The notes beneath the pieces are model-generated. The model worked only from the letters and a program-made list of their open reading frames with translations, was not told where the DNA came from and did no database searches. Shown here piece after piece: positions 13,949 through 47,554 of a stretch of DNA of 53,869 nucleotides. The stretch comes from Minisyncoccota bacterium (GTDB lineage Bacteria > Patescibacteriota > Minisyncoccia > Phycocordibacterales > DSPV01): NCBI GenBank assembly GCA_041662545.1, contig JBAZSH010000005.1:1-53869 (forward strand). The letters are read 5' to 3'. A program made the position numbers and the translations under genes. Position 1 is the first letter of the stretch. Each line of letters begins with the position of its first letter.

Positions 13949-14175
13949 ATAATTAAGATACTACTAATATTAGTACTGTTGATAAGTGGAAAACTTAAAA
14001 AACCTTTATTCATAAACCTTAAATCAAATTAATAATTTTAACAATCTCTGGGTAAAAAATGATAAGTTTTTTAAATTATAATAAATTTTTCTTTTACTGT
14101 GGAAAACTGATTTTTTACTAACAACTTTTAAACAAAATTTACACAGTCTTATCACATACTTATCAACAAGTTTTC
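13949..14175. other. Candidate oriC segment (dnaA-dnaN intergenic, very AT-rich, DnaA-box-like 9-mers)
   Basis: TTTTCCACA (revcomp of 14098-14106), TTATCAACA (14160-14168), TTTTCCACT (revcomp of 13985-13993). Classical location for an origin. Confidence 0.55.
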
Positions 14176-15602: not shown

Positions 15603-15743
15603 ATGTCTTTTACTTACCATCCAAAAAAACGAAAACGCGCCAAGACCCACGGCTTCCTTTCCCGCCAAAAGACCTACGGTGGTCGCCGGGCGATTCGTGA
15701 GCGCCGCCGCAAGGGCCGGAAAAAACTCTCGGTGTCGGGTTAG
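15603..15743 (+). CDS. rpmH: 50S ribosomal protein L34
   Basis: Hand translation [46 protein letters not shown]. 46 aa, ends at TAG. Below the ORF-track cutoff. Confidence 0.9.
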
Positions 15744-15748
15744 TTTTT

Positions 15749-16138
15749 ATGTTGCCCAAAAAACAAAGAGTTTCTAGAAAATTATTTGAAGCCGTTTTCC
15801 GTTCGGCCGCTACTGTTAGTTCGCCATTTTTTGTGTTGAAAGTGAAAAAAGCTCAAGTAAGTAAATTTGCCTTTTCGGTGTCGGCAAAGATTTGCCCAAA
15901 AGCAGTAGACAGAAACAAACTGCGCCGCCGCGGTTACGCGGCGGCGCGGAATCTTTTGCTGCAAATTAAAACACCAACAATTTGTCTTTTCATTATCAAA
16001 AAAGGCGCCGAAAAATTAACATTCCAAAAACTTCAAGAAGAAATAAAAAATATTTTACAGAAAGCAGGTATTTTAAATCTGGTTCACGCTTTCCACATAC
16101 TTGATGACCACTTTCCTGTCCCGCCCAAAGCCAGTTGA
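15749..16138 (+). CDS. rnpA: RNase P protein component
   Basis: 129 aa basic protein directly after rpmH. The C-terminal roughly 20 aa look like read-on into the convergent jag gene. Confidence 0.8.
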   Translation: MLPKKQRVSRKLFEAVFRSAATVSSPFFVLKVKKAQVSKFAFSVSAKICPKAVDRNKLRRRGYAAARNLLLQIKTPTICLFIIKKGAEKLTFQKLQEEIKNILQKAGILNLVHAFHILDDHFPVPPKAS

Positions 16139-16552
16139 TTCAGTTTTAATGTCGGTAAACGCTTCCAGTGCCGAATGGATAATCATCCGCTCGTAGGGCG
16201 TCATCGGTTCCAGCTCCATATTAGTTTTAAAAGACCGTGCCCGTTCCGCCATAATTTTAGCTCTCATTTGTAGTTCCTTAATATTATTTTCAAAATAACC
16301 ATTGATATCTATAAAAAATTTTACTGGTGAAATTTCCATCCCCACTTTTTTACCTACCAACCGTCGCGCCACCATAGTAAGGGCGCCCAAGTGTTCACCC
16401 CGAGTGCCGATTAAAACATTAGAATCATTACTTTTTACCATAAACCGCGGATGATCATCTTTGGAATCGGGTGCCAACTCCACGCTTTCCCAATGCATAT
16501 CCATTTTTCCCAATAATTCTTTGATGGTTTGGATGATGATTTCATTGTTCAT
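16073..16552 (-). CDS. jag: Jag/KhpB-like RNA-binding protein (KH plus R3H)
   Basis: LIGTRGEHLGAL (KH-like), YERMIIHSAL...GRDRKVVI (R3H). 4-nt overlap with yidC. Confidence 0.85.
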   Translation of the reverse strand: MNNEIIIQTIKELLGKMDMHWESVELAPDSKDDHPRFMVKSNDSNVLIGTRGEHLGALTMVARRLVGKKVGMEISPVKFFIDINGYFENNIKELQMRAKIMAERARSFKTNMELEPMTPYERMIIHSALEAFTDIKTESTGFGRDRKVVIKYVESVNQI

Positions 16553-17280
16553 AGTTTTTGTTGGCCGCTTTTTAATTGTTTGCGGATAACCAATTCTTGA
16601 CCGATGGCGAAGATATTACTCGTTGTCCAGTATAAAGCAATGGCGCCGGAAATACTGTAAGCGATAAAAAATACGACGACCGGAAAAATGTAGCGCATCT
16701 GCAAACCCATACTTCGTGCCAGATCGGCCTTGAAATCAGGTTTGTCACCACGCGGTTTAATTGGCGGCATCGCCAGTTTAGCTTGGAAAAATTGCGAGAT
16801 ACCAGCGAAAATCGCCAACAAAGCGCTTTTTTGGGAAATATCTATAAGTCCCAAAAAAAGCATATTAACTTTTTCCGGTACCGGCACAAAAGAGTAAAGC
16901 CACTCGGTATTAATAACCGGCAGACCGCCCCTGAAAAAAACATAGTATAGTCCAAAAATGATAGGAATTTGTATCAAAATTACCACAAAACTGGAAAAAG
17001 GATTGACTTGATGTTTCTTGTAAAGAGCCATTGTTTGCCGGGCTAACTCTTCTTTGTTGTTTTTAAATTGCTCTTTGATTTTAGCGGTTTCTGGTTCAAT
17101 GGCTTTCATTGCCATTTGGGTTTTAACTGCTTTTTTGGATAGCGGGAACATCAAAAATTTGATGATGCAGGTTAAAACTATAACTGCAATACCAACATCA
17201 GCGAGGGGTGTGATATCAATCAAAAAAACTAAGCCGTTATAAATCGGCTCAAAAACAACAGAATGGAAAAAACTTGCCAT
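16549..17280 (-). CDS. yidC: Membrane protein insertase YidC (short form)
   Basis: 243 aa with the five-TM YidC/Oxa1 core pattern. Followed by jag, as is usual. Confidence 0.88.
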   Translation of the reverse strand: MASFFHSVVFEPIYNGLVFLIDITPLADVGIAVIVLTCIIKFLMFPLSKKAVKTQMAMKAIEPETAKIKEQFKNNKEELARQTMALYKKHQVNPFSSFVVILIQIPIIFGLYYVFFRGGLPVINTEWLYSFVPVPEKVNMLFLGLIDISQKSALLAIFAGISQFFQAKLAMPPIKPRGDKPDFKADLARSMGLQMRYIFPVVVFFIAYSISGAIALYWTTSNIFAIGQELVIRKQLKSGQQKL

Positions 17281-17301
17281 TCGTCCATTCTAGCTTAAAA
17301 T

Positions 17302-18543
17302 TTATCTTACATCCAGAACCCAGGGAGTTAAGTCAATTTTATTCATAAATAGCAAGAACGATTCATCCTCGTTGAGCAGTGGGTTTATTACATCAATAGT
17401 TTTGTTGATAAATGTCTCGGGTGAAATCAGGCGGCTGGTTTCGCCGGTAACAGTATTGACTTTCCAAATATCATCGCTGAAAACTACTCGGCCCTGATAC
17501 CAGGAATCCGGATAATCACTTGCGGGCAAAGTTTTGGGCACAGCGCAAAAGACAATCGTCGGCTCGTTCCGGCTCCAGACGCACTTTTCAGGCAGAGTTT
17601 GAAGACCAAAATCACTGGCATTATTTTCAATCAAATCATAAATTTTAGTCCGGAACGAGCCGGTGGAGCTTTCCGAATAGAGCGCCAGTTTTTTATTGGG
17701 CGAAACCAAAATGGTTAAACCATTGATGCTCCCGACAATTTTTCGAAGTCCGCCACCGCTAGTGTTTAGGAAATAAGTAAAACCTTTGGCGCCAACCGAT
17801 GGCTTGGTGGTCAACACAACTGTTTTATTATCAGCGAAAGAAACCGACCACTCACTAAGTGGCGATTCAAAAATTAGGGTCTTTTTACCACCATCGGCGC
17901 CGGCAAAAATACCCCCTACCCCATTTCCAGATGGATAGAGATAAAAAATTTTACTTTTATCTGGCGAAACAACCAAGTCAGAAATTTTTTGCGGTAAATA
18001 AATCCCACCCAAAGTCATTTCCGTAGAGCTCGCAGGGCCAGAAAGTGTGGCGGCAAAACTTTCAATGGTTTCATTATCATCTTTCAATTGGCGAGTGACG
18101 ACAATATTATCGCCACCCTGCCCGCCATCGCTGCGCTCAGGCGCTGGCAGGCGGGCCCAAAACGCCTCATAGATTTTCGGTATGGTTTTGTTGGAAATTC
18201 TATTAATCACCAATGAGTTGGTTTGGGTTTCAAAGATGTTGCCGTCGGCGCGTTGGATGTATCGGATTAAATCATCAAAAATACCAGCGCCACCCACCGG
18301 TTCAGTGGTAATTTGTCGTAAGCGCGGTATGGGGGCGCTTATTCCTCCCGGAGGTGGTGTTCCACTTTGGCCTGGCGGAATTACGGGTATTTCACCACCC
18401 GGTCCGGTGGGTAAAGTGGGAGGCGTAACCGGTTCACCTGCGCCGTTTTTCATAAAGAAGAAATAGTAAGCAATACCCAAAGCAATCGCGATTATCACTA
18501 CGACGATAAAAATTATTATTAGGTTTTTTCGGTTAGAGTTCAT
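17302..18543 (-). CDS. Hypothetical membrane-anchored protein: N-terminal TM, Pro-rich linker, beta-rich ectodomain
   Basis: 413 aa, TM at residues about 8-30, PPTLPTGPGGEIPVIPPGQSGTPPPGG linker. Within the T4SS-like operon. Confidence 0.6.
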   Translation of the reverse strand: MNSNRKNLIIIFIVVVIIAIALGIAYYFFFMKNGAGEPVTPPTLPTGPGGEIPVIPPGQSGTPPPGGISAPIPRLRQITTEPVGGAGIFDDLIRYIQRADGNIFETQTNSLVINRISNKTIPKIYEAFWARLPAPERSDGGQGGDNIVVTRQLKDDNETIESFAATLSGPASSTEMTLGGIYLPQKISDLVVSPDKSKIFYLYPSGNGVGGIFAGADGGKKTLIFESPLSEWSVSFADNKTVVLTTKPSVGAKGFTYFLNTSGGGLRKIVGSINGLTILVSPNKKLALYSESSTGSFRTKIYDLIENNASDFGLQTLPEKCVWSRNEPTIVFCAVPKTLPASDYPDSWYQGRVVFSDDIWKVNTVTGETSRLISPETFINKTIDVINPLLNEDESFLLFMNKIDLTPWVLDVR

Positions 18544-18560
18544 ATAAGAAATATTATTTA

Positions 18561-19475
18561 TTAGGGTGCCTCAGTACAATTTTCCGTAATAATATAATAA
18601 GGGCTTGTGCTATTGAGAGCTGCGCTCGCTCGGGATTGACAGCTGTTATAAGTCAAAACAGAAGTGACGGGATTACCGGTTGCTGTTTTGGTGCAGGGTT
18701 CAGTTATCGTGTATGTGAGTCCACCACTATTGGAGCTAGTACGCACAACACTCATCCGTGCGTTACAAGAAGTGGGATTAAGGAAACCGTGTTCCTCCTC
18801 TGCTGTTCCTGCCTTTGGTTCCAACACACAATCTTTTGCAATGGCCGATGCACTTACCGACAATAATCTCGAATTACATTCATTATATGTATCAAACGAG
18901 ACACTGTAATCTGTTCCGTTAACAGCACTTGTGTATTCCAACACATATACACCTTGTTGATATTTTAACTTAAATTCTGCCTCGTAGTATGTGATTCTAA
19001 ACCTTGCCGTTGCTGCTGGTGGCGTGGTTGGTCCAGTAGCTGGTGTAACGGGGGTTATATTAAGGTTAAAATTTACCAAGGATGGATTAATGGTAAGTAA
19101 AATAAGATAAGAGCCAAGTGCCAACAGTAAGCCATAAATGGCGTTTGTGATAGTTTTTCTGGCATCACCTTTACTAGTTATCGCTTCGGCTGTCATATAT
19201 TTAATACCACCCCAGATAATCATAATAATCGCCAAAGCGGCGGCGATACCAATGGCTAGATTAAAAGCTCCCTTAATGTAATTACCAGCATCTTGTACGG
19301 CTGGTTTGCCACCAACTGTGGTGTCAGTTGTTCCCGGCAACGGTGCTAAGGGCACATAGGGTGCGGCAAAAACAGTGGTTACTGCCAAAAAATTAGCCAC
19401 AATAATCAAAGCCAAACCGACAGCGAATATTTTTTTATTAAAACGAGAAGAACCCATTGTTGTTTTGTTCACCAA
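18561..19475 (-). CDS. VirB2/TrbC-like (T4SS pilin-like) protein with a C-terminal triple Cys-pair repeat domain
   Basis: Signal peptide (..VTTVFA/AP), then two hydrophobic helices (AFNLAIGIAAALAIIMIIWGG; AIYGLLLALGSYLILLTINP) joined by a charged loop. The start may be the ATG at 19457. Confidence 0.6.
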   Translation of the reverse strand: MVNKTTMGSSRFNKKIFAVGLALIIVANFLAVTTVFAAPYVPLAPLPGTTDTTVGGKPAVQDAGNYIKGAFNLAIGIAAALAIIMIIWGGIKYMTAEAITSKGDARKTITNAIYGLLLALGSYLILLTINPSLVNFNLNITPVTPATGPTTPPAATARFRITYYEAEFKLKYQQGVYVLEYTSAVNGTDYSVSFDTYNECNSRLLSVSASAIAKDCVLEPKAGTAEEEHGFLNPTSCNARMSVVRTSSNSGGLTYTITEPCTKTATGNPVTSVLTYNSCQSRASAALNSTSPYYIITENCTEAP

Positions 19476-20451
19476 ATGAAATATTAAAGGATTTGGTGGT
19501 GAATTGGAAAATATCTTTTAGGTGATTGATCCGTAGTCCGACGGCAGCCACGCCGGCTTCATCACTAACCTGTCTTAAAGTGATTTGATTATTCTCATCA
19601 CCCGATGGAACTGTCTGGTTATTCATTTGCCAGACAAAATTAAGTTGAGGGTCGGCGGCGGTTGTTGCGTCAAAAAAGTAAGGAACGGCAAAAAGATTAA
19701 TTTCTTGGCCACTTAGGGCCGTGCCAGCCGATAACTCTTTATTGAACAAAATTCCTAAGCGCGGATTATTTTCATAAAAAGCTACCGATGGGGATTGGGG
19801 TTGAGCGGTTATTGTTCCGTAAGCGGAGACCATACCGTCTAAAGTTGAGACTGTTACTGAGATAGTAGTTGCCTTCACAGGCACCGAGCTTTTAGCGGTT
19901 ATTATATTTTTGCCAGCACCAGAAGCGCTTTGAATTGTTTTGTAATCCACTTGCCATTTGTAAATAAGTTCGTTGTCGCCGAATCTTTGACCGTCTTTAA
20001 TAATTTCTGGTATGGCGATGACTTTGATGGGCGAACCGTAACTGTAAAGTTTTTTTCCTTTGTAAAATGGCGGTGCGTAGGAAATTGGTTCCCAAATTAA
20101 GCTCACTTCAGCTGGCGTAATAGATACAGTTTCGTTAAGCTTGGCGCCGTCTATGGTTTCTATGGTAACAATCAAATTGCTTGATATGCCGATGTTGCCG
20201 GTTTTGAAACTGAAACTTTTTTCACCGACTGACGCCTTTTCCAACTTGCCGTTTAAGAACCAAGAAATTTTTGAACGGTCCAAGTCAATGCCCAGACCTT
20301 CAAGGGTGGCTTTGACAGTTTGATTGGCACCCGGGGATTCTGGCAAAAGATGAATTGTTACATCGCCGGCAGTGAGATAAGACGGTAAAAGTTGAGCACC
20401 GGCGAATAGTGGTAAGATGAGTAAGAGAGTGATTATAAATTTTGTTGGCAT
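19438..20451 (-). CDS. Secreted hypothetical protein, beta-sandwich-repeat-like
   Basis: Signal peptide MPTKFIITLLLILPLFAGA. 337 aa, no family recognised. Operon context. Confidence 0.6.
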   Translation of the reverse strand: MPTKFIITLLLILPLFAGAQLLPSYLTAGDVTIHLLPESPGANQTVKATLEGLGIDLDRSKISWFLNGKLEKASVGEKSFSFKTGNIGISSNLIVTIETIDGAKLNETVSITPAEVSLIWEPISYAPPFYKGKKLYSYGSPIKVIAIPEIIKDGQRFGDNELIYKWQVDYKTIQSASGAGKNIITAKSSVPVKATTISVTVSTLDGMVSAYGTITAQPQSPSVAFYENNPRLGILFNKELSAGTALSGQEINLFAVPYFFDATTAADPQLNFVWQMNNQTVPSGDENNQITLRQVSDEAGVAAVGLRINHLKDIFQFTTKSFNISFGEQNNNGFFSF

Positions 20452-20456
20452 TGTTA

Positions 20457-20840
20457 TTATTTTACCACACTCGCAATTTTTGGTGGAATTTTGCCGTGGC
20501 GACCTTTAAGTGCGGTGACAGCGGTTGCCGCGACCTGGCTTTTAGTGGTTATCCACATTATCGCGATGGCGACTGTCCAAGCGGGCAAAACATTAAGCGC
20601 TGGAATAATTTCAACTAAACCGGCTCCTACAAAAGGTAAACCGCGTCTGACACTGATAAAATTAACCCCGTAAATTTTGAACCAAATATAGAAGGTTATC
20701 CAAATAAATATATCCAATAAGGTATTAACAACGATACCTATTACAAAAAGACCGGCAATAATTTGGACCAAATCAATAAAACCAGCGATAGCCAGCATAA
20801 AAACCCAAGTGTGTTTTTCAATTTTTCTTTCGTCGTTCAT
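20457..20840 (-). CDS. Small polytopic membrane protein (about 4 TM)
   Basis: 127 aa, hydrophobic. First gene after the virB4-distal hairpins. Confidence 0.55.
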   Translation of the reverse strand: MNDERKIEKHTWVFMLAIAGFIDLVQIIAGLFVIGIVVNTLLDIFIWITFYIWFKIYGVNFISVRRGLPFVGAGLVEIIPALNVLPAWTVAIAIMWITTKSQVAATAVTALKGRHGKIPPKIASVVK

Positions 20841-20861
20841 TTTTGTTCGGTAATATTAATT

Positions 20862-20901
20862 CCTCCTTTGAAAAAGGAGGTGCCCCGATGTCAATCGGGG
20901 C
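20862..20901 (-). promoter_or_regulatory. Tandem intra-operon hairpins (possible attenuator or processing site)
   Basis: GCCCCGAT/ATCGGGGC (20882-20901) and CCTCCTTT/AAAGGAGG (20862-20880). This is the only sizeable gap (70 nt) in the operon. Confidence 0.4.
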
Positions 20902-20910
20902 GGAGGATTT

Positions 20911-22725
20911 TTAAATCCCCCCCTCACTTGCCTCCAGTTCCTGGCGGGCTTTTTTGATAGCTAAAATTTGCGACGGGTCGGAGGTGATGATTTGGTCCTC
21001 GGTGTAGGAGGCGATAATTTTTATAGCCACATGTTTTAAGCCGGCAAAGAAAATCCCCTCCCCCACATCTGATTCCAGCAACAGAAATTTTTCCTCATCA
21101 GTTAAATTAAAAATCTGTTGGACTTTGTCTATTACTGAAGTGGATTGTTTAAGCAAAATCTGAATGGATGAGTTAGTAATAATTGGTAGGCCGTAAGAAG
21201 ATTTTAAGAAGTCGTCAACATCTTGAGTGATGGTTGCCAAACCCAAAAAATATTTTCGGCCTCGTTTTGCCAATGACAACAAAAATGACGCCGTGTCCTC
21301 GGATTTCATCATCCACCACGCCTCGTCAATTACCAGTAGCCGTTTTTTCAGTTTTTTTCTGATAGCATTCCAAATAAAGTGGGTAACGATATACATTGCT
21401 ACCGGTTTTAACTCTTCCTCCATATCTCTCAAAGAAAAAACAACAAATTTACCATCGATATCCACATTAGACGGTTGATTGATAAAACCGGCCCAAGTGC
21501 CGTGGGTGTATTTGGATAGCCGTTGGGTCAGACTTTGACCACCTTCCATACCAGCTAACACCATTTCAAAATCAGACATTAGGGGGGGCTCCACTGCCGC
21601 GAAGTCACTTTCAACTCCAATATCTTTTAGAGCATAAGTTTCAGTAACGGCACGATCAACAATAGAGTCCTCTTCCGGCGATAAACCACTTAACATTATT
21701 CGGAATAGTCCGACTAAGTTGATAATGTGAGAACGCAAAACATCCGCCGGGGATTCATCCTCGCGCGCTACCGGTAATTCAAAAGGATTGATGTGATGCT
21801 CGGAGGTGAGCGAGATGTTGAAATATTTTCCGCCGGTAGCGTTGGCCATATATTCGTATTCTCGCTCTGGGTCAAGCACCAAAACATCAACATCAAACAT
21901 CAAGGAGCGAAGAATTTCCAATTTGGTCATATAGCTTTTTCCTGAACCAGATTTGGCGAAAACGATGGAGTTGAAATTTTCCAATGAGAAACGATCAAAT
22001 AACACCAATGAAGAATTGTGGCGGTTAATACCATAAAGAATGCCTTTGTCGGAAGTCAGGTCAAAAGAAACGAAAGGAAAAACACTGGATAATGGTGATG
22101 AATTGAGTTTGGAATGGACCATTAGCTCGTCGGTGGCGGTAGGAATGATGCTTCGGAAACCTTGTTCCTGTTGAAAAAGCGCGGGTTTTAGATAAACCAT
22201 TTTGGCTTCCAACATTGATTTGATTTCCGATTCCAAACGGTTGAGGTCATTATCATTTTCGGCAAAGATGGAAATATAGAGTCCGACATCAAAAATTTTT
22301 TCGGTGGCCTGTTGAAGAGAGTCGCGCAAACTTTCCAAATCTTGATAAGCTGTGTCCAGCTTTGGGTCGCGCACTAGTCCTTTTTCTTCCCTCAAGTGAA
22401 TCTGACTTTGGACTTCGGCAACTTTTTTCTGGAATTGGCGTAGGACTCGTGCCGTTTCCACTGGATGGATGAAAATGGAAACATTAAATACTTTATCTAG
22501 ATTGATAATTGGCGCGAACCAACTTTCCGAAAGATATCGTGGATAGGAAATAACGAAGAAAGTTCTGATCAGTTTTTCGCCCAAATTAATTTCTCTAGGA
22601 TTTACCTTAAAAGCTGACGGAGCAATAATGTCTTGTAATTCCAAAACACCCGCCTCGTAAATTTCGCTAGGCAAAACCGGCGCCACTTGCAACTTATTTT
22701 TTTTAAATATGTCTAGCAATCCCAT
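20911..22725 (-). CDS. virB4: VirB4/TrbE/CagE-like type IV secretion ATPase
   Basis: Walker A FAKSGSGKSYMTK, Walker B LLVIDEAWWMM, N-terminal region FFVISYPRYL...W typical of VirB4-like ATPases. 604 aa. Confidence 0.85.
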   Translation of the reverse strand: MGLLDIFKKNKLQVAPVLPSEIYEAGVLELQDIIAPSAFKVNPREINLGEKLIRTFFVISYPRYLSESWFAPIINLDKVFNVSIFIHPVETARVLRQFQKKVAEVQSQIHLREEKGLVRDPKLDTAYQDLESLRDSLQQATEKIFDVGLYISIFAENDNDLNRLESEIKSMLEAKMVYLKPALFQQEQGFRSIIPTATDELMVHSKLNSSPLSSVFPFVSFDLTSDKGILYGINRHNSSLVLFDRFSLENFNSIVFAKSGSGKSYMTKLEILRSLMFDVDVLVLDPEREYEYMANATGGKYFNISLTSEHHINPFELPVAREDESPADVLRSHIINLVGLFRIMLSGLSPEEDSIVDRAVTETYALKDIGVESDFAAVEPPLMSDFEMVLAGMEGGQSLTQRLSKYTHGTWAGFINQPSNVDIDGKFVVFSLRDMEEELKPVAMYIVTHFIWNAIRKKLKKRLLVIDEAWWMMKSEDTASFLLSLAKRGRKYFLGLATITQDVDDFLKSSYGLPIITNSSIQILLKQSTSVIDKVQQIFNLTDEEKFLLLESDVGEGIFFAGLKHVAIKIIASYTEDQIITSDPSQILAIKKARQELEASEGGI

Positions 22726-22728
22726 AAA

Positions 22729-23400
22729 TTAAATTTGACTTAGCTGGATTGGTTTTTCCATTTCGCCCGGATTGAAAATTTTATAAAACAACTCAATTAC
22801 CTCTTCGGTGCCCAACGGTGCGGTACGCAAACCACAACTAGCTAATCCTTGCGCCACCACTCCAACCCTTTGGTCCATTTGCAAGCGGTCTTCCTCAAAT
22901 CTTTCTATTCTTCTAACCGCTTCATCAGTTGCTTGTTCTCGCCGGCCCAGAAATTTTTGAACTGGATTATTTGTCGCATTTAACATTGCCGGTGAATAAG
23001 GAATAGTAACAAAAAAACTTTTGCTCATTATATTAGTATTCTCGGTAAAATTTTTAATGAAACCGATATATTCGCGGACTTGGATTTTCATTAGGTCATT
23101 GGTTTGTTCTTTAACTCTTTCTTCCAAAAGAGCTAGATAAGGTCGAATATCCAATCGTCGCGATTGAATGAAAATTTGAACGGAAAAATCTAATGAGTTT
23201 AAAAAATTTTGGAATTGGCCAATGATTGCCTGTTGCTCATCCGCACCTTTCAAAGCAAAATTAATTGATGACACCAAAAGAATTGCCCGATAGGAACCAT
23301 CTTTCAAAACAACAATACCATCTCGCACCTCTTTGATGGGCACGAACTCTTGGGAGGGTTTTGGTTGTGAATTAAAGAAAGCCATTGATTCATTATACAC
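22729..23400 (-). CDS. Hypothetical protein resembling a VirB4 N-terminal (CagE/TrbE/VirB-type) domain, without a P-loop
   Basis: VPIKEVRDGIVVLKDGSYRAILLVSSINFALKGADEQQAIIGQFQNFLNSL pattern. In frame with virB4 and 6 nt from it. Confidence 0.45.
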   Translation of the reverse strand: MYNESMAFFNSQPKPSQEFVPIKEVRDGIVVLKDGSYRAILLVSSINFALKGADEQQAIIGQFQNFLNSLDFSVQIFIQSRRLDIRPYLALLEERVKEQTNDLMKIQVREYIGFIKNFTENTNIMSKSFFVTIPYSPAMLNATNNPVQKFLGRREQATDEAVRRIERFEEDRLQMDQRVGVVAQGLASCGLRTAPLGTEEVIELFYKIFNPGEMEKPIQLSQI

Positions 23401-23831
23401 TACTTATTTTTCATCGTTTCTCTGGTACCGGGACCCATTTGGTCATAAATGTCCAAACTCCAAGTTAGGTCTTTTAATTTACTTTCGGACAAACGGGGCA
23501 CAGTGATGGGCGATTCTTCTGCCGCTTTAATACCTTTGCCCGTTGGCACTTTTGGTATTTTGCGCCAGATATATAGTCGGTTGCCTCGGAAAAAATGAAA
23601 AGCCGATTCCATAACGGAAACAAATGTCCGGCCGTTTACTCGGTAAAAAGCCAAAGCCAAGGCCAGACCGGCGGCGGCCAATATCAAAGGGATGGCAATA
23701 AATATATTTAGAAAACGATAAAGAGCAAAACAAATTCCCGCGCCGCCGGCAAGGTAAATAAACTGCTTCAAGGTTAAGGGCCCGAAAATTCTGTCTTCTA
23801 CTTCAATGAATTGTGGGATTTGAAAACGCAT
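23400..23831 (-). CDS. PrgI-family (VirB3-like) small membrane protein
   Basis: MRFQIPQFIEVEDRIFGPLTLKQFIYL followed by two TM helices. Sits upstream of virB4, as in Gram-positive T4SS loci. Confidence 0.65.
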   Translation of the reverse strand: MRFQIPQFIEVEDRIFGPLTLKQFIYLAGGAGICFALYRFLNIFIAIPLILAAAGLALALAFYRVNGRTFVSVMESAFHFFRGNRLYIWRKIPKVPTGKGIKAAEESPITVPRLSESKLKDLTWSLDIYDQMGPGTRETMKNK

Positions 23832-23832
23832 A

Positions 23833-24489
23833 TTATTTCAATGGCTCGCGATAAGGGTCGGCTACATAAGGAGGTGGTTCTTTTATTTCCTCCACCGATT
23901 TCGGCATTCTCACCATTCCACTCAACTTATCTTGCACAATGTTGCTAGTTGGTTTCGTCGGCACTGGGTTTTCAATGTCGCGCAAAATTTCTTCGCGGCT
24001 TGGTGGTTTTTCTTCCGGCTCCATTGTTGGAGGTAACGGAGGTGTTGGGGGTAACGGAACTAGTTGCGGGGTTGGGAGCGGTTCGGGAACAACGGGCGCT
24101 GGTGGAACAGGTATTGGGGGTTTGGGAACAATTGGTGTTGGGATTGGCGGTTTTCCACTTCCTACTTCCTCCTCACGAATCCCATGAATCTTTCTCAATG
24201 ATTCCCGAACGGGGCGGAAAATTTCTGTGTTAATGTCTTCGGCAATCGCCCGCGCTTTTTCCTCCGGCACATTAAGTGCTTTGGCAATGTTCCCAATAAA
24301 TTTTAATGGATGTTCTAGACCTATCATTACTAGATTGGTTTCTATTTCAAGATTCCCCGATTGGTTGTCGCGCAAACTATATTTGTTCATAATGCCGGTG
24401 AATTTTTGTTTGGTATCGGCAGATAAAATTACCATCCGGATGTCTTCAGGAATTGTTTTGCCAAATGTAGTTTTTGTGTTTTCGTCCAT
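23833..24489 (-). CDS. Hypothetical protein with a long Pro-rich segment
   Basis: 218 aa. PPIPTPIVPKPPIPVPPAPVVPEPLPTPQLVPLPPTPPLPP. Confidence 0.55.
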   Translation of the reverse strand: MDENTKTTFGKTIPEDIRMVILSADTKQKFTGIMNKYSLRDNQSGNLEIETNLVMIGLEHPLKFIGNIAKALNVPEEKARAIAEDINTEIFRPVRESLRKIHGIREEEVGSGKPPIPTPIVPKPPIPVPPAPVVPEPLPTPQLVPLPPTPPLPPTMEPEEKPPSREEILRDIENPVPTKPTSNIVQDKLSGMVRMPKSVEEIKEPPPYVADPYREPLK

Positions 24490-24503
24490 TTTATTTTTTC
24501 AGT

Positions 24504-26522
24504 TTATTTACTTCTTAGAGCATCAAGAAGTTTCTTTTTTTCATCATCAGTAAATGAGCTTTTGTTTATTGTCTCTTCCATTCTACTATATTCCTCGCCC
24601 TTTAATTTTTTGGCATTTTTTCTCAAATCGCTCACTATATCGTCGTGTCTTTCTTTGTCCTCAATTCTCTCTCTAATTTTTTTTGTCACTTCTGAAATGT
24701 TTTCTTCCCCATCTCCGTCATCTTTTTTGTTTTTTTCATCCCTTGTTATTTTTTTGGCAATATTTTTAATTATTTCTTCACCAAATTTTTGTCTTAAATA
24801 AACTCGCGCCAATTTCATAAAGCGTTCGTTAGACGAAACCTTTTTGTATGTGTCGTCCCCAAGGATTTTTTCAATTTCCACATCCACCCCACTTTTAACT
24901 ATTGGTGGAGGTGGAATAACGGGTGGCACTTCACTAGCAGATGCTGGTGATGTGCCGGGTGGAGATGATGATGGACCAGCGTAGAATGTTCTTTTGCCTG
25001 ATGGTCCAGTTCCACTTGTAGTGCCAGGCCCACCAGGGGTAGCAGTTGTTGGTGGTGAAGGTGTGATAATGGGAGGTCTACTTGATGGTGTTGTGGTACC
25101 GGTTGGTGTGATCGGTCTCCGAATTAGTGGAGATGGTTTAGCTAAATGTTCGCCGAATTCTTCTTTGGACTCTTTTTTCTTTTTCTGTGCCGCATCATAA
25201 CCACCTCTGTCACCACTGAAGCGAGCGCTGGAAACTTTGCCCAGACCACTGAAAGCTGCTCGCCCCATAGTTGGGTGTCGCGAGGCCCAATCTTTGAATT
25301 TATCCGAATCGGCAATACCTCGGGCTGTAGCGCCAAATGTATTTCTTCCCGCCCAACCTTGCGCACCTTTTCTAAGCGACTGACCCCAGCCAATCATTGT
25401 GGTTGCGCCGGTAGCGCCGACGGACTTTGATATAATAAGGGTTGCAATAAGGAGTCCTATAATGAACAAATAACCAAATAGCATTCCGGCTATCGTGGTA
25501 TTACCGCTTAAAGCACCAGCCCAGCTACCGTTTTCTCCGCCAAGCAACGCTTTTACACTTGGGGCTTGAACGATTCTGATAGAGAGGTAAAGCATTGCCA
25601 TAAAAACGGGAGCAAAAATCAACTGCTCGGTTAATTTGCCAGACCACTTTCCCCAAACATCAAGTTTTGGTATTAGTCGGGATGCCACAGCAATCGGCGA
25701 TACCATTAAGAGGAACAACAAAATAACAGTTCTAGCCACAAACATAATGGCGCCGGCAAAGAAAACAAAGGCGGCAATGAGCATCAAAACTACCCCAACT
25801 GTTTGAGACAAAATTCTTTGGACCGCCATTGTGATAAAAGATTTGACCAATTCAGTTGCCCCACTATTAGCTAATTGCTCTTCTGTTGGAAAGATTGTTT
25901 GGATTTTCAATGTGTCAAAAAATGGAGCAGCTAAACCAAAACGCCATGTTGTCGAGTCTGTAATATCGAATGAGGAAAGTTCCGCGCCACTACGAGGAAT
26001 TGCATCATAAAACCAAAGCGCCGTAATGTTTGAAGCATCAATGGCAACTTTAGTGAAAAACATACTAAAATTAATGAGCAGTGCCGTGATTATTATTGTA
26101 GCTAACATCTTGCCCGGATTGTCGCCGAGAATGGTTTTTATGGCAACATAGAGGAGGATGAAAATGAAAAACATATTAGCGAGGTCGCGGATTATTTTCC
26201 AACCATCATTAATGACCGGTGTTTTGTCCAGAAAATCCTTAATATTAAGCGAGAAACTTATAGAGGCATCAAATAGCACGCCGGCGAAAGCTGTTATCAA
26301 ACCGGCAATCATAAGAAAAATATTTGCCAAACCATCAACAACACTTAATATGGCCTCAAAGGCGAAACTTTTGATACTTAAAAAACTAAGAGCCTTGGCA
26401 ATAGCTTCGGGAATAACATCAGCATAGGCGTGCACCGGCACCAGCGCCAAAGGGCCGGCGATAATGCTCACCAGCACCACGGCGAGGATTAGTTTTTTAT
26501 TTTTTTGGAAGAAGTTGGGCAT
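24504..26522 (-). CDS. VirB6/TrbL-like polytopic membrane protein with a Pro-rich and Lys/Glu-rich C-terminal tail
   Basis: 672 aa, signal/TM plus multiple TM helices over about 400 aa. Position upstream of the VirB3-like and VirB4-like genes matches T4SS synteny. Confidence 0.6.
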   Translation of the reverse strand: MPNFFQKNKKLILAVVLVSIIAGPLALVPVHAYADVIPEAIAKALSFLSIKSFAFEAILSVVDGLANIFLMIAGLITAFAGVLFDASISFSLNIKDFLDKTPVINDGWKIIRDLANMFFIFILLYVAIKTILGDNPGKMLATIIITALLINFSMFFTKVAIDASNITALWFYDAIPRSGAELSSFDITDSTTWRFGLAAPFFDTLKIQTIFPTEEQLANSGATELVKSFITMAVQRILSQTVGVVLMLIAAFVFFAGAIMFVARTVILLFLLMVSPIAVASRLIPKLDVWGKWSGKLTEQLIFAPVFMAMLYLSIRIVQAPSVKALLGGENGSWAGALSGNTTIAGMLFGYLFIIGLLIATLIISKSVGATGATTMIGWGQSLRKGAQGWAGRNTFGATARGIADSDKFKDWASRHPTMGRAAFSGLGKVSSARFSGDRGGYDAAQKKKKESKEEFGEHLAKPSPLIRRPITPTGTTTPSSRPPIITPSPPTTATPGGPGTTSGTGPSGKRTFYAGPSSSPPGTSPASASEVPPVIPPPPIVKSGVDVEIEKILGDDTYKKVSSNERFMKLARVYLRQKFGEEIIKNIAKKITRDEKNKKDDGDGEENISEVTKKIRERIEDKERHDDIVSDLRKNAKKLKGEEYSRMEETINKSSFTDDEKKKLLDALRSK

Positions 26523-26537
26523 TATTTGAAGAAATTT

Positions 26538-28661
26538 CTAATTTCTAACAGTTACCGTTCGGGTGAATGAAGCACTTGTAACCCCATCATTTACTGTGTA
26601 AGTAATGATGTAATTGCGGGTGGCTTGGAAAGTGATTAGGTTGGCATTAGTTGGATCAACGATAAAATCCAACAAGGGGTCAATTGTGAATGACACGCTA
26701 GAGTTTGGAAGCGCGCTATTATCGGCGCACTTTGTGGCCGTATCTCCCCCAAGGACATCAAAGTCCTCATTGACTTTCGGATTTGCCCCAGACCAGTTGA
26801 TAATGGGATTTACATAGCGGTTGAGGGTAAGTTCTGACACATAAAGGTCATAACTTGGTTGTTCAATTCTTATTTTCTGTATACTAGTTGGAGGAATTAG
26901 GTTAATAACAAAATTAGCGGTATTTGAAGTTGGGGATTTAGTTAAAGTTATTTGGGATGTCTCGGTTGCATAAAGTTTTACAATACTAGGTATAATAGTG
27001 GTGCTCTTATGGATGTAAGGAGCATAAAGAGGGAAAGAAGAATCGTAAGTTTGAATTTGTATAGAAGATAGTGTCTCTGGTTTATTAAGAATGAATTCGA
27101 GTGATCCACCATTTACTCTCGCGTATGTTTCAGTGGTATTGTCAATGGCGTAATTTGCCCCGCCGCCCCCACCGGCCCGGTCAATGTCAAAAGAGGAAGC
27201 CCACCAAGATTTGTAGTCAGTGGAATATAGTCTTGATTGTTGCGAACATTGGTTGCTTGACGCTGTAACAATACTATCTTCAAGATTATCAATTGTCGCT
27301 TGAGCGGCTTGCCACGAAGGGTTTTGAGCGCAGTAATTGGCGGCTTGTTGGTAATCAGCGACTGTCGCTAGGTTTGGATTTGCCACAAAAGGATCAGTTC
27401 CGTTTGTGATATCAACCCACGCGGGTGGAGTTCTAGTTTTGTCAAAGAACATTACTGCCGTATCATTAGCGGAAAGCGTATAGTTTTGGATGTAATGTGG
27501 GTCACTTGGAGTATTACAATTTACACCCGTACTGATTGGTGAATTTTCAGCAAAAACACCAGTAGTTGGTTTTGCGTATGCATTGAAGGTTCCGCTGGCA
27601 ACTTGTTGTCTGAACTGGTTTTGATAATAGTTAGGATTACTTCTTCCGCCACTGAAAAGACCGGTGGCTTTGAAAGCGCTGCCAATCAATTGATTCATCA
27701 AGGCGCCGAAAATAGCGTCAAGGTCTTCGGCAGCAACATATTCATCCACTTCCGCGCCGAGGGATTTGGATAAACCTTCCTGAATAGTTTTGCCCGGTGT
27801 AACAATTTCATATCTTATACAAGGATCCACCCCCATATCTAAGTCTGCCTCAAGCGCATCACCAGTATCTTCTTCTACACATCTTTTTGTTGATAAAAAT
27901 CCGGCACCCCAGTCGGCTTCTGTTTTTGCCACAAGTTGTTGGTTGGCAATGCGCATATTAATTTCATCTTGGGCAATAAGAAACGCGCCGTAAGGATTAT
28001 TTTGCGGAATAGTAGTCAAGTTTATCCAGTTTTGCCAACCCTCACCACTTCCGTTTGGATCCCACTGGCCGCCCATAAAGGCATTTTGAACATTTTGTTG
28101 AATATCCGAAAGAGTGCAGCCGATTCTCTCACGGAAACCACCCCCGCCTCCCCAATAACTTAAGCCGAGTGATAACCGGATATTTGCTTGAAACGGACTA
28201 CATAAGAAGTTTAGATCAGTGCCCATAACCACTTGTCCAATGGCTCGGTCGGCAATGTCGGCAAAGAAACTAGCTGGGTCGGAAACAAACCGTGGTCCAG
28301 AACCGTCAAAGCCGTCATTTATCCAATCCACAATACTGGTTAGAAAACTATGAATAAGCTGTTTTACCAAGTTTTTAACCAACGGCTTGATGATACAGTC
28401 AGAAACAAAACTTCCACCAGTGTAACCGCTAGTTTTTTGGGTATTGCCTCTGGTAGCAGAATCTTTTGTGGGGACTTCTCCTCCGCCCATGCCTCCCAGC
28501 ATTCCACCCAAACTACCGAAAAGGTTGGAAATAATTCCGGCAATACAACTACTTTGCGCTTCGGTTTTTTTGGGCCAAAGCAAAATTGCTGATGGTAACA
28601 CGACGGTCGCAAGAAACGCCATCAGAACAAAACCCAGAGTTACTTGGCGGAGTTTATTCAT
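26538..28661 (-). CDS. Large secreted or anchored hypothetical protein (707 aa)
   Basis: N-terminal TM/signal, Gly-rich stretches, possible discoidin-like and Ig-like C-terminal modules. No family recognised. Confidence 0.6.
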   Translation of the reverse strand: MNKLRQVTLGFVLMAFLATVVLPSAILLWPKKTEAQSSCIAGIISNLFGSLGGMLGGMGGGEVPTKDSATRGNTQKTSGYTGGSFVSDCIIKPLVKNLVKQLIHSFLTSIVDWINDGFDGSGPRFVSDPASFFADIADRAIGQVVMGTDLNFLCSPFQANIRLSLGLSYWGGGGGFRERIGCTLSDIQQNVQNAFMGGQWDPNGSGEGWQNWINLTTIPQNNPYGAFLIAQDEINMRIANQQLVAKTEADWGAGFLSTKRCVEEDTGDALEADLDMGVDPCIRYEIVTPGKTIQEGLSKSLGAEVDEYVAAEDLDAIFGALMNQLIGSAFKATGLFSGGRSNPNYYQNQFRQQVASGTFNAYAKPTTGVFAENSPISTGVNCNTPSDPHYIQNYTLSANDTAVMFFDKTRTPPAWVDITNGTDPFVANPNLATVADYQQAANYCAQNPSWQAAQATIDNLEDSIVTASSNQCSQQSRLYSTDYKSWWASSFDIDRAGGGGGANYAIDNTTETYARVNGGSLEFILNKPETLSSIQIQTYDSSFPLYAPYIHKSTTIIPSIVKLYATETSQITLTKSPTSNTANFVINLIPPTSIQKIRIEQPSYDLYVSELTLNRYVNPIINWSGANPKVNEDFDVLGGDTATKCADNSALPNSSVSFTIDPLLDFIVDPTNANLITFQATRNYIITYTVNDGVTSASFTRTVTVRN

Positions 28662-28665
28662 AGTT

Positions 28666-29646
28666 CTATTCTATAATATTTATAAATTGAAAGCCCGACT
28701 CTGCCTGTGTAAAACTAACACCGCTTTCCATCAACCCATCTTTGATACTTTTTAAGAGTGGGTAGAAGTTGTCGGTAGCATCGGGATAATTTTGTAGGCC
28801 GGCGGCGGCTTTGATTGGATTAGAAAAAGTTAATTTCATTGATTCAATGCCAAGAGTAATAGTTGATATGGTGTTGGTTAAAGCAATGTGGTCGGGCAAA
28901 AAGATACTGGGCACGGCCATTTTCAATAAAGCGGCGCGACCTTTTTGGTAAGCGAGAATGTTGGCATTTAATTTATCCAGTTCCAATGGGTTGTTGTTGT
29001 CTACCGCCCTCTGAAGCACGATTAGTTCGTTTTCAAATTTTGGCGCGCTGTAATCAACAAAAAGCGCGCCTAATTCATTACCATAAAGGTGAACATCGGC
29101 GGGTGTTTCGTTGGTAATGACTTTAAAATCACTAGCGCTGTAAATTTTTGCCGACATTGTTGACGCCTCTTGGTCAATATAGGATTGAACCAAATCGGCA
29201 TAATTATCATAGTTAGCTGGATCGCCACTGCCGGTTTGTTTAATGGTCACATAACGAGTAAATAAATCACGGGAAAATTGATCGGAAGCCGTGAGTTTTC
29301 TTGTTGTGCTTGGTGTGGTGGAGGCAGTAGTAATTTGGTCGTTGGGACCTTTTATTAAAGGACTACGGCCGGCGGCAATTTCTGCGCCGTCCGGTGTGCC
29401 GTCACCATCGGTGTCGGGATTGTCCGGGGCGGTTTTCCAGAGCGCCTCTTCCCAATCTTTTAAACCATCATTATCGGTGTCTTTGTTGGCAATGGAATCA
29501 ATAAGTTTTTGGTCGGTTACTGAAATTACGCCATCGTTGTTGATTGTTTTGGTGTGGTTTTTATATTCAAGCAAAGCGAAAATACCGCCGATAACAATTA
29601 AGCAGATAACAACAACCGGAACTATTTTTCTGGTTGGGAAAACCAC
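28666..29646 (-). CDS. Membrane-anchored protein with thrombospondin type 3-like Ca-binding repeats
   Basis: N-terminal TM, DTDNDGLKDWEE and DTDGDGTPDGAE motifs. GTG start. First gene of the operon. Confidence 0.6.
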   Translation of the reverse strand: MVFPTRKIVPVVVICLIVIGGIFALLEYKNHTKTINNDGVISVTDQKLIDSIANKDTDNDGLKDWEEALWKTAPDNPDTDGDGTPDGAEIAAGRSPLIKGPNDQITTASTTPSTTRKLTASDQFSRDLFTRYVTIKQTGSGDPANYDNYADLVQSYIDQEASTMSAKIYSASDFKVITNETPADVHLYGNELGALFVDYSAPKFENELIVLQRAVDNNNPLELDKLNANILAYQKGRAALLKMAVPSIFLPDHIALTNTISTITLGIESMKLTFSNPIKAAAGLQNYPDATDNFYPLLKSIKDGLMESGVSFTQAESGFQFINIIE

Positions 29647-29653
29647 TGGCTAT

Positions 29654-29662
29654 ATTGTATCA
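29654..29662 (-). promoter_or_regulatory. Extended -10 (TGATACAAT) for the T4SS-like operon
   Basis: TGATACAAT-N7-GTG start at 29644-29646. No Shine-Dalgarno. Confidence 0.45.
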
Positions 29663-29730: not shown

Positions 29731-29739
29731 TGATAAAAT
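29731..29739 (+). promoter_or_regulatory. Extended -10 (TGATAAAAT) for the divergent 389-aa gene
   Basis: Same 12-mer CTATGATAAAAT as at tsaE/pilB. N6 to the GTG at 29746, N9 to the ATG at 29749. Confidence 0.45.
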
Positions 29740-37542: not shown

Positions 37543-37546
37543 AAGT

Positions 37547-37897
37547 TTACATGTGTGCTTTACAAGTTTTTGCCGCTGGATTAGCTTCAAGTCGGGCTTC
37601 TTCAATTTGCCCGCCACAAGTTTCGCAAATACCAAATTTCCCACCCCCGATTCTTTTTAAGGCATTTTTGATTTCGTTGTAGCGGATTTCCAATTGTTTC
37701 AAAATTCCCGCATTGTCTTCAAACGCCTCAATGCTGTCTGCCACCTCATCTCTATCCGAAGCTAAAACATCACCTTTTTCTGGTGTCGGTTCCCAATCGG
37801 CGGGATTTGCAGGATTAATTCGGCCAACGGTTTTCAACTCTTCTTCCACTCTCGCCAATTCCTCGGTTAATTTTTGTTTAAATTTTTCCATATTCAT
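37547..37897 (-). CDS. DksA/TraR-family C4 zinc-finger protein
   Basis: CETCGGQIEEARLEANPAAKTCKAH. I prefer the start MNMEKF at 37897. Confidence 0.75.
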   Translation of the reverse strand: MNMEKFKQKLTEELARVEEELKTVGRINPANPADWEPTPEKGDVLASDRDEVADSIEAFEDNAGILKQLEIRYNEIKNALKRIGGGKFGICETCGGQIEEARLEANPAAKTCKAHM

Positions 37898-38886: not shown

Positions 38887-38895
38887 ATTATATCA
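38887..38895 (-). promoter_or_regulatory. Extended -10 (TGATATAAT) for the 313-aa gene
   Basis: TGATATAAT-N6-ATG (38880). Confidence 0.5.
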
Positions 38896-47523: not shown

Positions 47524-47529
47524 CCCAAA

Positions 47530-47538: not shown

Positions 47539-47554
47539 TACTTGGGTATTTTTC

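Follow-up and report, generated by a model that had tools for sequence, protein, structure and literature searches.

An origin-proximal type IV secretion gene cluster of a Minisyncoccota bacterium, probably the Paceibacteria version of the Patescibacteria-clade system

Gene content of the cluster

We analysed a 53,869-nt stretch of contig JBAZSH010000005.1 from a Minisyncoccota bacterium, referred to below as the window (54 kb); all statements on gene absence cover this window. Thirteen consecutive minus-strand open reading frames (ORFs) fill positions 16073-29646: g1 to g11, which include the recognisable parts of a type IV secretion system (T4SS), and then yidC and jag (Table 1). A first-pass annotation, made from the letters alone, had described them as a minimal, chromosomally embedded T4SS-like operon that lacks DNA-transfer machinery. 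The ORF listing reproduces the tight packing exactly as given there, with spacers from g1 to jag of 4, 15, 14, 1, -1, 3, 70, 5, -38, 17, 21 and -4 nt; the g9/pilin overlap of 38 nt shrinks to 20 nt if the pilin begins at the ATG of the ENA gene call. The base composition of the cluster shows no anomaly. On one side the cluster is flanked by ksgA-uvrD, and on the other by rnpA-rpmH-dnaA-dnaN. Because the AT-rich dnaA-dnaN spacer holds DnaA-box-like sites, the cluster appears to lie within ~2 kb of the probable origin of replication; the rpmH-dnaA spacer holds two further DnaA-box-like sites.

The VirB4, PrgI/VirB3 and pilin assignments were confirmed, since all three proteins pass curated profile cut-offs. 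The ATPase encoded by g7 matches NF045971, the NCBIfam model named 'VirB4-like conjugal transfer ATPase, CD1110 family', with 351.8 bits against a cut-off of 325, covering profile positions 185-733 of 752, and it also matches P-loop_TraG (E 5e-26), AAA_10 and DUF87. Its sequence shows both the Walker A (FAKSGSGKS) and the Walker B (LLVIDEAWW) motif, and by its profile matches this 604-aa protein is a VirB4 of the MPF_FATA/CD1110 type. The g5 product passes PF12666 (40.1 bits, cut-off 27; E 5.4e-10). The 223-aa product of g6 had been called VirB4-N-like, and indeed it aligns to VirB4 profiles over their N-terminal ~170 positions. In the CD1110 VirB4 profile the match spans positions 2-167 (E 7.7e-9), and in Mbov_0397 VirB4 it spans positions 98-233 (E 1.4e-10). 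It matches TrsD NF041427 under the curated cut-off (E 6.6e-5), its orthologues bear PF26593 TraC-like, and as judged by these similarities it is a TrsD-like, stand-alone VirB4 N-terminal domain. Because the 223-aa protein and the 604-aa ATPase jointly cover a full-length VirB4, we regard VirB4 as split between two genes in this organism.

The pilin encoded by g10 matches PF18895 (T4SS_pilin) with 28.2 bits against a cut-off of 26.6, as well as the Mbov_0395 pilin-like model (E 1e-4). A signal peptide and two transmembrane (TM) helices are predicted, and the pilin domain occupies residues 67-120. At 304 aa the protein is unusually long, with a variable C-terminal extension of ~180 aa beyond the pilin domain, and orthologues are conserved over only ~41% of the query, which corresponds to that domain. 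The extension contains three repeats of ~35-45 aa, each with a Cys pair in the approximate pattern ...SC..R...(~20 aa)...C..., and pilin orthologues carry extensions of like length and unrelated sequence.

The fourth product noted as T4SS-like is g3, a polytopic protein with ~8 predicted hydrophobic segments (a signal or TM segment plus ~7 TM helices) followed by a long, hydrophilic, Pro/Lys-rich C-terminal tail. Its earlier identification as VirB6/TrbL-like is probable by way of its orthologues, 4 of 39 of which match TrbL (VirB6) PF04610 (best E 6e-5); the window protein itself gave no Pfam match. It scores E 0.034 against the NCBIfam model of the Mbov_0396 TM protein of integrative and conjugative elements (ICEs), and its family gave P 0.007 against pCF10 PrgH by hhalign, a comparison in which the positive control was itself weak. 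The resulting VirB6-VirB3-VirB4 order is of the Gram-positive type, as first noted from the letters, and corresponds to prgH-prgI-prgJ of pCF10. Similarly, the pilin, g3 and g6/g7 show weak matches to the Mycoplasma ICE trio Mbov_0395, Mbov_0396 and Mbov_0397, respectively. Direct hhalign comparison of each cluster family with pCF10 PrgC-PcfA gave no match of at least 20% probability, but was insensitive, the PrgI-against-PrgI control reaching 13%.

Table 1. Features of the cluster, its control elements and its surroundings in the 54-kb window
Feature	Position	Strand	Remark
g1, 326 aa	28666-29646	-	GTG start; TSP3_bac
g2, 707 aa	26538-28661	-	secreted; adhesin-type C-terminal modules
g3, 672 aa	24504-26522	-	polytopic; probable VirB6/TrbL-like
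g4, 218 aa	23833-24489	-	soluble, Pro-rich
g5, PrgI/VirB3-like, 143 aa	23400-23831	-	two TM helices; PF12666
g6, TrsD-like, 223 aa	22729-23400	-	stand-alone VirB4 N-terminal domain
g7, VirB4 ATPase, 604 aa	20911-22725	-	NF045971
g8, 127 aa	20457-20840	-	small polytopic membrane protein
g9, 337 aa	19438-20451	-	signal peptide; probably Ig-like
g10, VirB2-like pilin, 304 aa	18561-19475	-	PF18895
Pilin C-terminal extension	18561-19100	-	three repeats with Cys pairs
g11, 413 aa	17302-18543	-	TM-anchored; probable beta-propeller
yidC	16549-17280	-	Pfam 60KD_IMP
jag	16073-16552	-	Pfam R3H
Inverted housekeeping segment	16073-17301	-	yidC, jag and 21-nt spacer with -10
Extended -10 TGATACAAT	29654-29662	-	7 nt before g1 GTG
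-10 TTATAGAAT		-	before g2, 6-7 nt spacing; TAnWAT scan
Extended -10 TGGTAAAAT	20459-20467	-	7 nt before g9 ATG; overlaps g8 stop codon
-10 AGCTAGAAT	17287-17295	-	in 21-nt spacer, six nt before yidC ATG
Two tandem hairpins	20862-20901	-	70-nt VirB4-g8 spacer
dnaA-dnaN spacer	13949-14175		~20% GC; three DnaA-box-like sites
dnaA	14176-15516	-	origin region
rpmH	~15603-15743	+	origin region
rnpA	15749-16138	+	origin region
PilB-type ATPase	3919-5610	+	T2SSE/type IV pilus assembly
IPT/TIG-domain gene, 389 aa	29746-30915	+	divergent from g1
LysM + Peptidase_M23 hydrolase	34017-35069	+	4.4 kb upstream of cluster, beyond uvrD
ComM/YifB-like ATPase	35983-37644	-	Mg-chelatase family
Two large predicted surface proteins	45601-50362	-	by fusA-rpsG-rpsL; 640 aa and 754 aa

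Conservation of the locus and the yidC-jag inversion

One genome per GTDB species was scanned with the window VirB4 protein, which yielded more than 561 relatives, and the best 80 of these by VirB4 match served as our comparison set. Their VirB4 proteins are 76-81% identical, and all come from metagenome-assembled genomes of Paceibacteria/Parcubacteria (Taylor-, Zambryski-, Campbell-, Wolfebacteria and others). When 19 window proteins were mapped onto these loci by tblastn and blastp, a single gene order emerged wherever the contig extends to the flank genes: uvrD-ksgA-g1-g2-g3-g4-PrgI-TrsD-VirB4-(g8)-g9-pilin-g11, beyond which jag, yidC and rnpA lie in the opposite orientation, with dnaA-dnaN next. 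Detectable matches, which are lower bounds as many contigs end early, number 79 each for PrgI and TrsD, 75 for g9, 66 for the pilin, 61 for g3, 59 for g11, 53 for g2, 42 for g1, 41 for g4 and 34 for g8. The Paceibacteria core of this system consists of ~10 genes, six of which have no family assignment.

Rates of change differ markedly along this order. Mean pairwise identity, computed all-against-all among 51 genomes, is 0.81 for VirB4, 0.61 for DnaA, 0.50 for DnaN, 0.47 for YidC and 0.32 for both g9 and g11, so that the VirB4 motor is more conserved than DnaA and exposed parts fall to about 30% identity. VirB4 distances correlate with housekeeping distances (rho 0.30-0.45), where the housekeeping genes correlate among themselves with rho 0.41-0.55. 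Together, the synteny, the identity gradient and the covariation of VirB4 with housekeeping genes argue that this is a core machine passed on by vertical descent, whose exposed parts evolve fast, rather than a mobile element. The first-pass annotation had likewise taken the locus for a fixed cellular apparatus and not a mobile module, and this conclusion holds: the cluster occupies the same place between ksgA and dnaA across 80 species, wherever the contig reaches these genes, and VirB4 divergence tracks that of housekeeping genes. It is right because of the conserved synteny, however, and not because of the yidC-jag linkage on which it had been based.

The absences that had been listed at the outset were likewise borne out. 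Nearly all window ORFs of at least 100 aa were scanned against Pfam, and no relaxase, VirD4/TcpA-type coupling protein (a type IV coupling protein, T4CP), VirB11 or integrase was found among them; neither does the window contain a tRNA, an Rfam family (the hairpin spacer included) or att-like direct repeats flanking the cluster. The assignable large ORFs outside the cluster encode housekeeping or surface proteins. Besides the genes already named, these comprise polA, tsaE, pilB, ruvB, yebC, ruvC, tyrS, a class A penicillin-binding protein, recO, PNPase, a DksA-type protein, rpsG, rpsL, an M16 peptidase, a class II aminoacyl-tRNA synthetase, EF-G and Ig-like surface proteins. None of the 11 T4SS-cluster proteins carries a hydrolase domain. 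A cell-wall hydrolase with LysM and Peptidase_M23 domains is encoded beyond uvrD, and it could supply the missing wall-opening activity; M23/LysM-containing substitutes for VirB1 have been noted in Patescibacteria (PMC12102498).

These data bear directly on whether the locus might be a degenerate or cryptic ICE, with the relaxase, T4CP and integrase encoded beyond the window. The CD1110-family VirB4, PrgI and the Mbov_0395/0396/0397-like proteins do have homologues in the machinery of ICEs and plasmids from Firmicutes and Mycoplasma, and our view is limited to 54 kb of the genome. Nevertheless, the cluster sits between ksgA and the rnpA-dnaA origin region throughout the 80 sampled species, wherever the contig extends to these genes, compositional anomaly, tRNA, integrase and att repeats are all lacking from the window, and both the conservation of VirB4 and its covariation with housekeeping genes speak for vertical descent. 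In addition, only 103 of 3,035 Patescibacteria genomes have a relaxase, which is seldom encoded close to virB4 (PMC12102498). We therefore consider an ICE remnant close to refuted.

The two genes at the end of the array have a different history. YidC (Pfam 60KD_IMP, 151.8 bits) and Jag (R3H, 61 bits) had been described as fused onto the 3′ end of the operon. Among the 80 loci, however, yidC lies opposite in strand to VirB4 in all 57 genome-collection loci that reach it, and in these 57 loci a canonical rpmH-rnpA-yidC-jag unit runs divergently from dnaA and converges on the T4SS cluster. In the window, g11 is instead followed by yidC and jag on its own strand, with rnpA facing them. There rnpA overlaps jag convergently by 66 nt, its last ~20 codons being antisense to the 3′ end of jag, and the rnpA ORF measures 129 aa as compared to a median of 113 aa in relatives. 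Because the rnpA ORF runs on antisense into jag, one breakpoint can be placed at ~16073, and the extra rnpA codons apparently arose by read-on across the inversion breakpoint. No inverted repeats beyond chance were found where the segment ends.

The same arrangement was recovered in L081 and L082, which are independent assemblies of the same or a near-identical organism, and in L083/L084 and L085, where g11 is 70-77% identical; the g11 protein of L083/L084 is also assigned in NCBI records to Parcubacteria bacterium GW2011_GWB1_44_7. A relative at 44% identity, L086, has the canonical yidC layout. On this comparative evidence a ~1.2-kb yidC-jag segment is inverted, and the inversion is real, fixed in a small subclade and not a property of the T4SS. 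The proposed fusion therefore does not hold, as the inversion is limited to close relatives and yidC has its own -10 element; yidC-jag is, by the layout in relatives, a neighbour of the T4SS cluster and no conserved part of it.

Transcription units and exposed proteins

A generic sigma-70 scan performed at chance level, with 35 sites against 33.7 in shuffled sequences. A more specific signal was found in the motif TAnWAT, often with TGn upstream (TGnTAnAAT), which ends 6-7 nt before the start codon in 12 of 45 window genes and occurs at two genes at most for any other spacer of 0-54 nt. Because TAnWAT peaks at this distance from start codons, leaderless transcripts appear to be frequent in this organism. 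Further examples are found at 3889-3897(-), 3904-3912(+), 29731-29739(+), 38887-38895(-) and 47530-47538(-), and back-to-back pairs of such elements occur at tsaE/pilB and at g1/TIG-domain gene.

Within the cluster, TGATACAAT before g1 is likely the promoter of a leaderless or near-leaderless transcript. The operon had been said to be headed by a single -10 element, and this one is present as described; additional -10 elements nevertheless precede g2, g9 and yidC, and a weak leaderless-type -10 also precedes g11. The element before g9 recurs most clearly: 40 of 69 g9 orthologues (58%) have a leaderless-type -10, 33 of them with TGn. The same configuration is seen across the 80 loci at 58% of yidC, 55% of uvrD and 37% of PrgI genes, but at only 5-8% of VirB4, g2, g3, g8, g11, jag, dnaA, dnaN and g1. 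From the g9 element TGGTAAAAT, g9-pilin-g11 is likely transcribed as a leaderless message that starts inside the cluster. The genes probably form three transcription units or more, namely g1-VirB4 (perhaps with g8), g9-pilin-g11 and yidC-jag, each preceded by a putative leaderless-type -10; the internal -10s and the lack of conserved co-orientation speak against a single polycistronic unit through yidC-jag, as originally proposed. If these assignments are true, the conserved promoter before g9-pilin-g11 would let the surface module be expressed apart from the motor. Gene order proves to be an unreliable guide to function here, with a yidC-jag linkage that stems from a recent inversion and putative leaderless promoters placed inside packed arrays.

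The single wide gap had been reported to bear a hairpin, and the 70-nt VirB4-g8 spacer indeed holds two in tandem (minimum free energy -25.4 kcal/mol, z = -4.39; 0 of 200 shuffles fold equally well). The second pairs the g8 Shine-Dalgarno sequence AAGGAGG, and the hairpins are a possible attenuator, terminator or translational control element. They are not kept in relatives, where the spacers are mostly shorter than 30 nt or hold other hairpins or promoters. In some relatives (L002, L005, L007) a strong, GC-rich, terminator-like hairpin directly follows VirB4. In L002 and L005 this hairpin is succeeded by TGATACAAT 6 nt before the g9 start, an explicit terminator-promoter junction that sits where the window has its two hairpins and g8.

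Six proteins of the cluster, g1, g2, g4, g8, g9 and g11, are lineage-specific envelope or accessory components. Together with the 223-aa protein they formed the seven for which no family had been recognised, and this list can now be shortened by the 223-aa protein, which is placed as TrsD-like. Weak matches point to Ig-like repeats in g9 and a propeller in g11, and g4 and g8 stay without a family. All-against-all hhalign among the accessory families gave nothing above 12% probability for hidden paralogy, and the profiles of g2, g3, g4 and g8 found no meaningful match in the PDB.

The g1 protein, with 553 full-length homologues, combines an N-terminal TM anchor, TSP3 Ca-binding repeats (residues ~55-100; TSP3_bac, 26.2 bits against a Pfam cut-off of 25) and an all-helical extracytoplasmic domain (residues 120-326). 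Its AlphaFold2 (AF2) model, built from 68 homologues, has a pLDDT of 85.9 and displays a TM helix, TSP3 loops and an all-helical domain of ~200 aa, for which Foldseek gave a best PDB match of only E 0.79 and no NTF2 match. The possibility that g1 is the missing VirB8 was rejected, as the Pfam VirB8 match (E 0.074) is overruled by this confident all-helical model that lacks an NTF2 match.

The largest accessory protein, g2, is a candidate host-binding subunit. It consists of a signal peptide, a conserved Cys-containing N-domain (residues ~35-340) and variable C-terminal modules. Most of its 75 homologues align to the N-terminal third to half of the query only, and Cys, Trp and Gly positions are conserved in the N-domain. 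The homologue C-termini differ by genome and include F5/8 type C (discoidin), Bact_surface_Ig-like, PKD, SdrD_B and GH5 cellulase domains. For example, a homologue with 55% identity over 99% coverage has discoidin and Ig-like domains opposite the C-terminal half of the window g2, which by homology would likewise carry discoidin-like and Ig-like modules. When 1.84 billion representatives were searched with a profile of the g2 family, 6,325 clusters at 50% identity matched, 4,213 of them at E <= 1e-30, and no Pfam model covers the family; five g2 homologues weakly match DUF4141 at their very N-terminus (28 bits, cut-off 30). Tentatively, and with more doubt than confidence, we propose that g2 acts as the VirB5/adhesin equivalent, its N-domain docking on a VirB2-type filament and carrying host-binding domains that can be exchanged. 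If this is true, g2 domain swapping and the variable pilin extension would set the host range of Paceibacteria, whose hosts are almost entirely unknown.

The other accessory proteins are less readily described. A conserved N-domain of ~100 aa, a Pro-rich linker and a conserved C-terminal DPYREP motif make up the soluble g4 protein. The g8 protein, for which 2-4 TM helices are predicted, is variably present (34 of 80 relatives) and is lacking even from the close relative L083. The g9 protein has a predicted signal peptide; its profile matches Hoc in the PDB (E 0.0023), and BiPBP_C and Ig_3 each give weak matches in 8 of 36 orthologues. In g11, of which 278 homologues were found, an N-terminal TM anchor and a Pro/Gly linker precede a propeller-like region. 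The g11 profile aligned to a series of TolB chains in the PDB, all over that region (best E 0.055), and in orthologues PD40 was matched twice and DPPIV_N once.

Additional surface proteins are encoded in the window. The IPT/TIG-domain gene is inserted between ksgA and the cluster. Of the 80 related loci, tblastn detected a homologue in 2 and blastp in 5, and in the tblastn pair (L007, L044) the gene has the corresponding place. Its product may be a variable surface protein associated with the cluster. Of the two large proteins near fusA-rpsG-rpsL, the 640-aa one has a DUF11 domain and the 754-aa one PG_binding_1 and several Ig-like domains, and they may be further host-interaction proteins.

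Role of the machine and comparison with known systems

The aggregate evidence makes it highly probable that the locus represents, in Paceibacteria, the Patescibacteria-clade T4SS, a chromosomal and vertically inherited system derived from monoderm (MPF_FATA) conjugation machinery. In the mechanism that we propose, a VirB4/TrsD hexamer would dock on PrgI and VirB6 in the single membrane, and this motor would power assembly of a VirB2-type filament or conduit across the wall. The fast-evolving, exposed g2, pilin extension, g9, g1 and g11 would then form a stalk and host-contact surface. An origin-proximal T4SS cluster has been described in Southlakia epibionticum (SEML1_0006-0019; Wang et al. 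2023, PMC10633639). Besides VirB4 and a TrsD-like protein it encodes PrgI, VirB6-like proteins and an array of pilins; neither a relaxase nor a coupling protein could be recognised in it, and it is essential for epibiotic growth (PMC10633639). By analogy with that system, the most likely function of the machine is contact-dependent exchange with a host cell and not conjugation, with protein export or host attachment as the likeliest roles. We rank contact-dependent host interaction (export or attachment) above a role in adhesion only, and the latter above DNA import.

An adhesion organelle alone, in which VirB4 builds an adhesin-decorated VirB2-type fibre that tethers the host and no substrate is moved, would explain why the cluster has a pilin, although monoderm-type systems normally do without one (PMC12102498). 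It would also suit the variable adhesin-type domains on g2, the variable pilin C-terminal extension and the absence from the window of a T4CP, T4CPs being the usual substrate receptors. However, the window also encodes PilB, and in Saccharibacteria type IV pili are, next to the T4SS, the second envelope machine with demonstrated essentiality. Type IV pili already serve adhesion, as they mediate host adhesion in Saccharibacteria (PMC10633639). Moreover, a VirB6-like channel subunit is kept, and a T4CP is not needed for protein secretion by Bordetella Ptl or Brucella VirB (PMC12102498). On balance we judge a purely adhesive role to be unlikely.

The remaining candidate is an inward-directed T4SS, like Helicobacter ComB or archaeal Ced, that would import host or environmental DNA as nucleotides or for recombination. 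VirB2-, VirB3-, VirB4- and VirB6-type parts occur without relaxase, T4CP or VirB11, as in ComB, and the window VirB4 partially matches the CedB DNA-import ATPase (NF041017, E 7.7e-10). That match, however, reaches 38 bits where the cut-off is 700, and it is confined to the P-loop core. The neighbourhood is rich in recombination and repair genes, with uvrD, ruvB, ruvC, recO, polA and the ComM-like ATPase, and ComM is a branch-migration factor in natural transformation. Similarly, comF, recG and radA adjoin the T4SS in class ABY1 (PMC12102498). Against this, the nearby recombination genes are ordinary origin-proximal housekeeping, found in relatives irrespective of the cluster, and the ComM-like ATPase, though it bears on DNA uptake, may simply be another of them. 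Furthermore, competence in Southlakia needs type IV pili and ComEC, and deletion of comEC ends transformation but not viability, where the T4SS is essential (PMC10633639; PMC12857230). DNA uptake is therefore the poorer fit, and we consider it quite improbable.

Several points weigh against our interpretation of a host-directed, vertically inherited T4SS and should be read with it. Essentiality of the T4SS comes from one saccharibacterium with differing accessory genes (a lysozyme, an NTF2-like protein and the pilin array) (PMC10633639). VirD4-like genes are far from virB4 in many Patescibacteria (PMC12102498), and the search here covered 54 kb. The choice of the 80 loci by best VirB4 match biases VirB4 identity upward somewhat. 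The role of g3 as an extended VirB6/TrbL-like channel subunit is probable and draws on its orthologues; through weak profile matches, g9 is probably built of Ig-like beta-sandwich repeats and g11 is a probable TolB/PD40-type beta-propeller. The AF2 model of the g2 N-domain is helical and of low confidence (pLDDT 60.6), with no Foldseek match in the PDB under E 2.9. Lastly, the promoter calls are consensus-based.

The patescibacterial T4SS is of broad interest as the first T4SS shown to be essential for its own bacterium, and it is a leading candidate for how ultrasmall epibionts exploit their hosts. The first-pass annotation regarded the role of such loci as not established, but the T4SS class has been published (PMC12102498), as has its requirement for epibiotic growth (PMC10633639). 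Indeed, the fixed, non-conjugative, origin-proximal Patescibacteria T4SS is already in the literature, and the locus described here is a rediscovery, one more instance of it. Conceptually it adds nothing to the published picture, which it corroborates in Paceibacteria, the largest class. What it adds is modest: the yidC-jag inversion, the putative internal leaderless promoters, the rejection of g1 as VirB8 and the large, modular g2 family. The contrast between motor and surface is also sharpened, with a conserved VirB4 set against exposed proteins that diverge and adhesin modules that are swapped.

Among known systems, Helicobacter ComB, Bordetella Ptl and Brucella VirB resemble the window cluster in being VirB4-driven without T4CP or relaxase, and they can import DNA or export proteins. 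Unlike the window, these are diderm systems with a VirB7-10 core complex, and the sequence likeness found here is limited to VirB4, VirB2, VirB3 and VirB6. The Gram-positive MPF_FATA systems (pCF10 Prg/Pcf, CTn2 CD1110, Mycoplasma ICE) share the VirB6-VirB3-VirB4 order and a CD1110-family VirB4. In contrast to them, the window lacks a relaxase, a VirD4-like T4CP, a PrgK-type hydrolase, PrgL/PrgD VirB8-like proteins and a PrgB adhesin, and it has a split VirB4, a pilin and a fixed chromosomal site instead of a plasmid or ICE. The Southlakia T4SS is closer: it is likewise an origin-proximal chromosomal cluster with the order PrgI-TrsD-like-VirB4, large polytopic VirB6-like proteins upstream, VirB2-like pilins, an exported Ig-like protein nearby and no recognised relaxase or coupling protein. 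It differs in its six tandem short pilins (103-185 aa), as compared to one 304-aa pilin with a C-terminal extension in the window, and in its lysozyme-like and NTF2 (VirB8-like) proteins, neither of which is found in the window cluster, where g1 is all-helical.

Closest of all is the Patescibacteria-clade T4SS defined by Quiñonero-Coronel et al. (2025), who surveyed 3,035 Patescibacteria genomes and found 2,425 VirB4s to form a monophyletic clade nested in MPF_FATA (PMC12102498); a 2025 nomenclature review lists patescibacterial T4SSs as a new branch of the superfamily (PMC12857230). In that survey TrsD, PrgI/VirB3, VirB6 and VirB2 lie near virB4, the TrsD-like protein being the most abundant partner, and in Paceibacteria and Microgenomatia the T4SS neighbours are dnaA, dnaN, rnpA, ksgA and rpmH (PMC12102498). 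The window agrees in gene content, with its MPF_FATA-type VirB4, adjacent TrsD-like protein, PrgI/VirB3, probable VirB6-like protein and VirB2-like pilin, in the absence of a relaxase and in its chromosomal place beside the same five genes. Nothing essential differs; the inverted yidC-jag segment and the divergent TIG gene are peculiar to the window and its close relatives, and g1, g2, g4, g8, g9 and g11 correspond to genes that the survey leaves unannotated.

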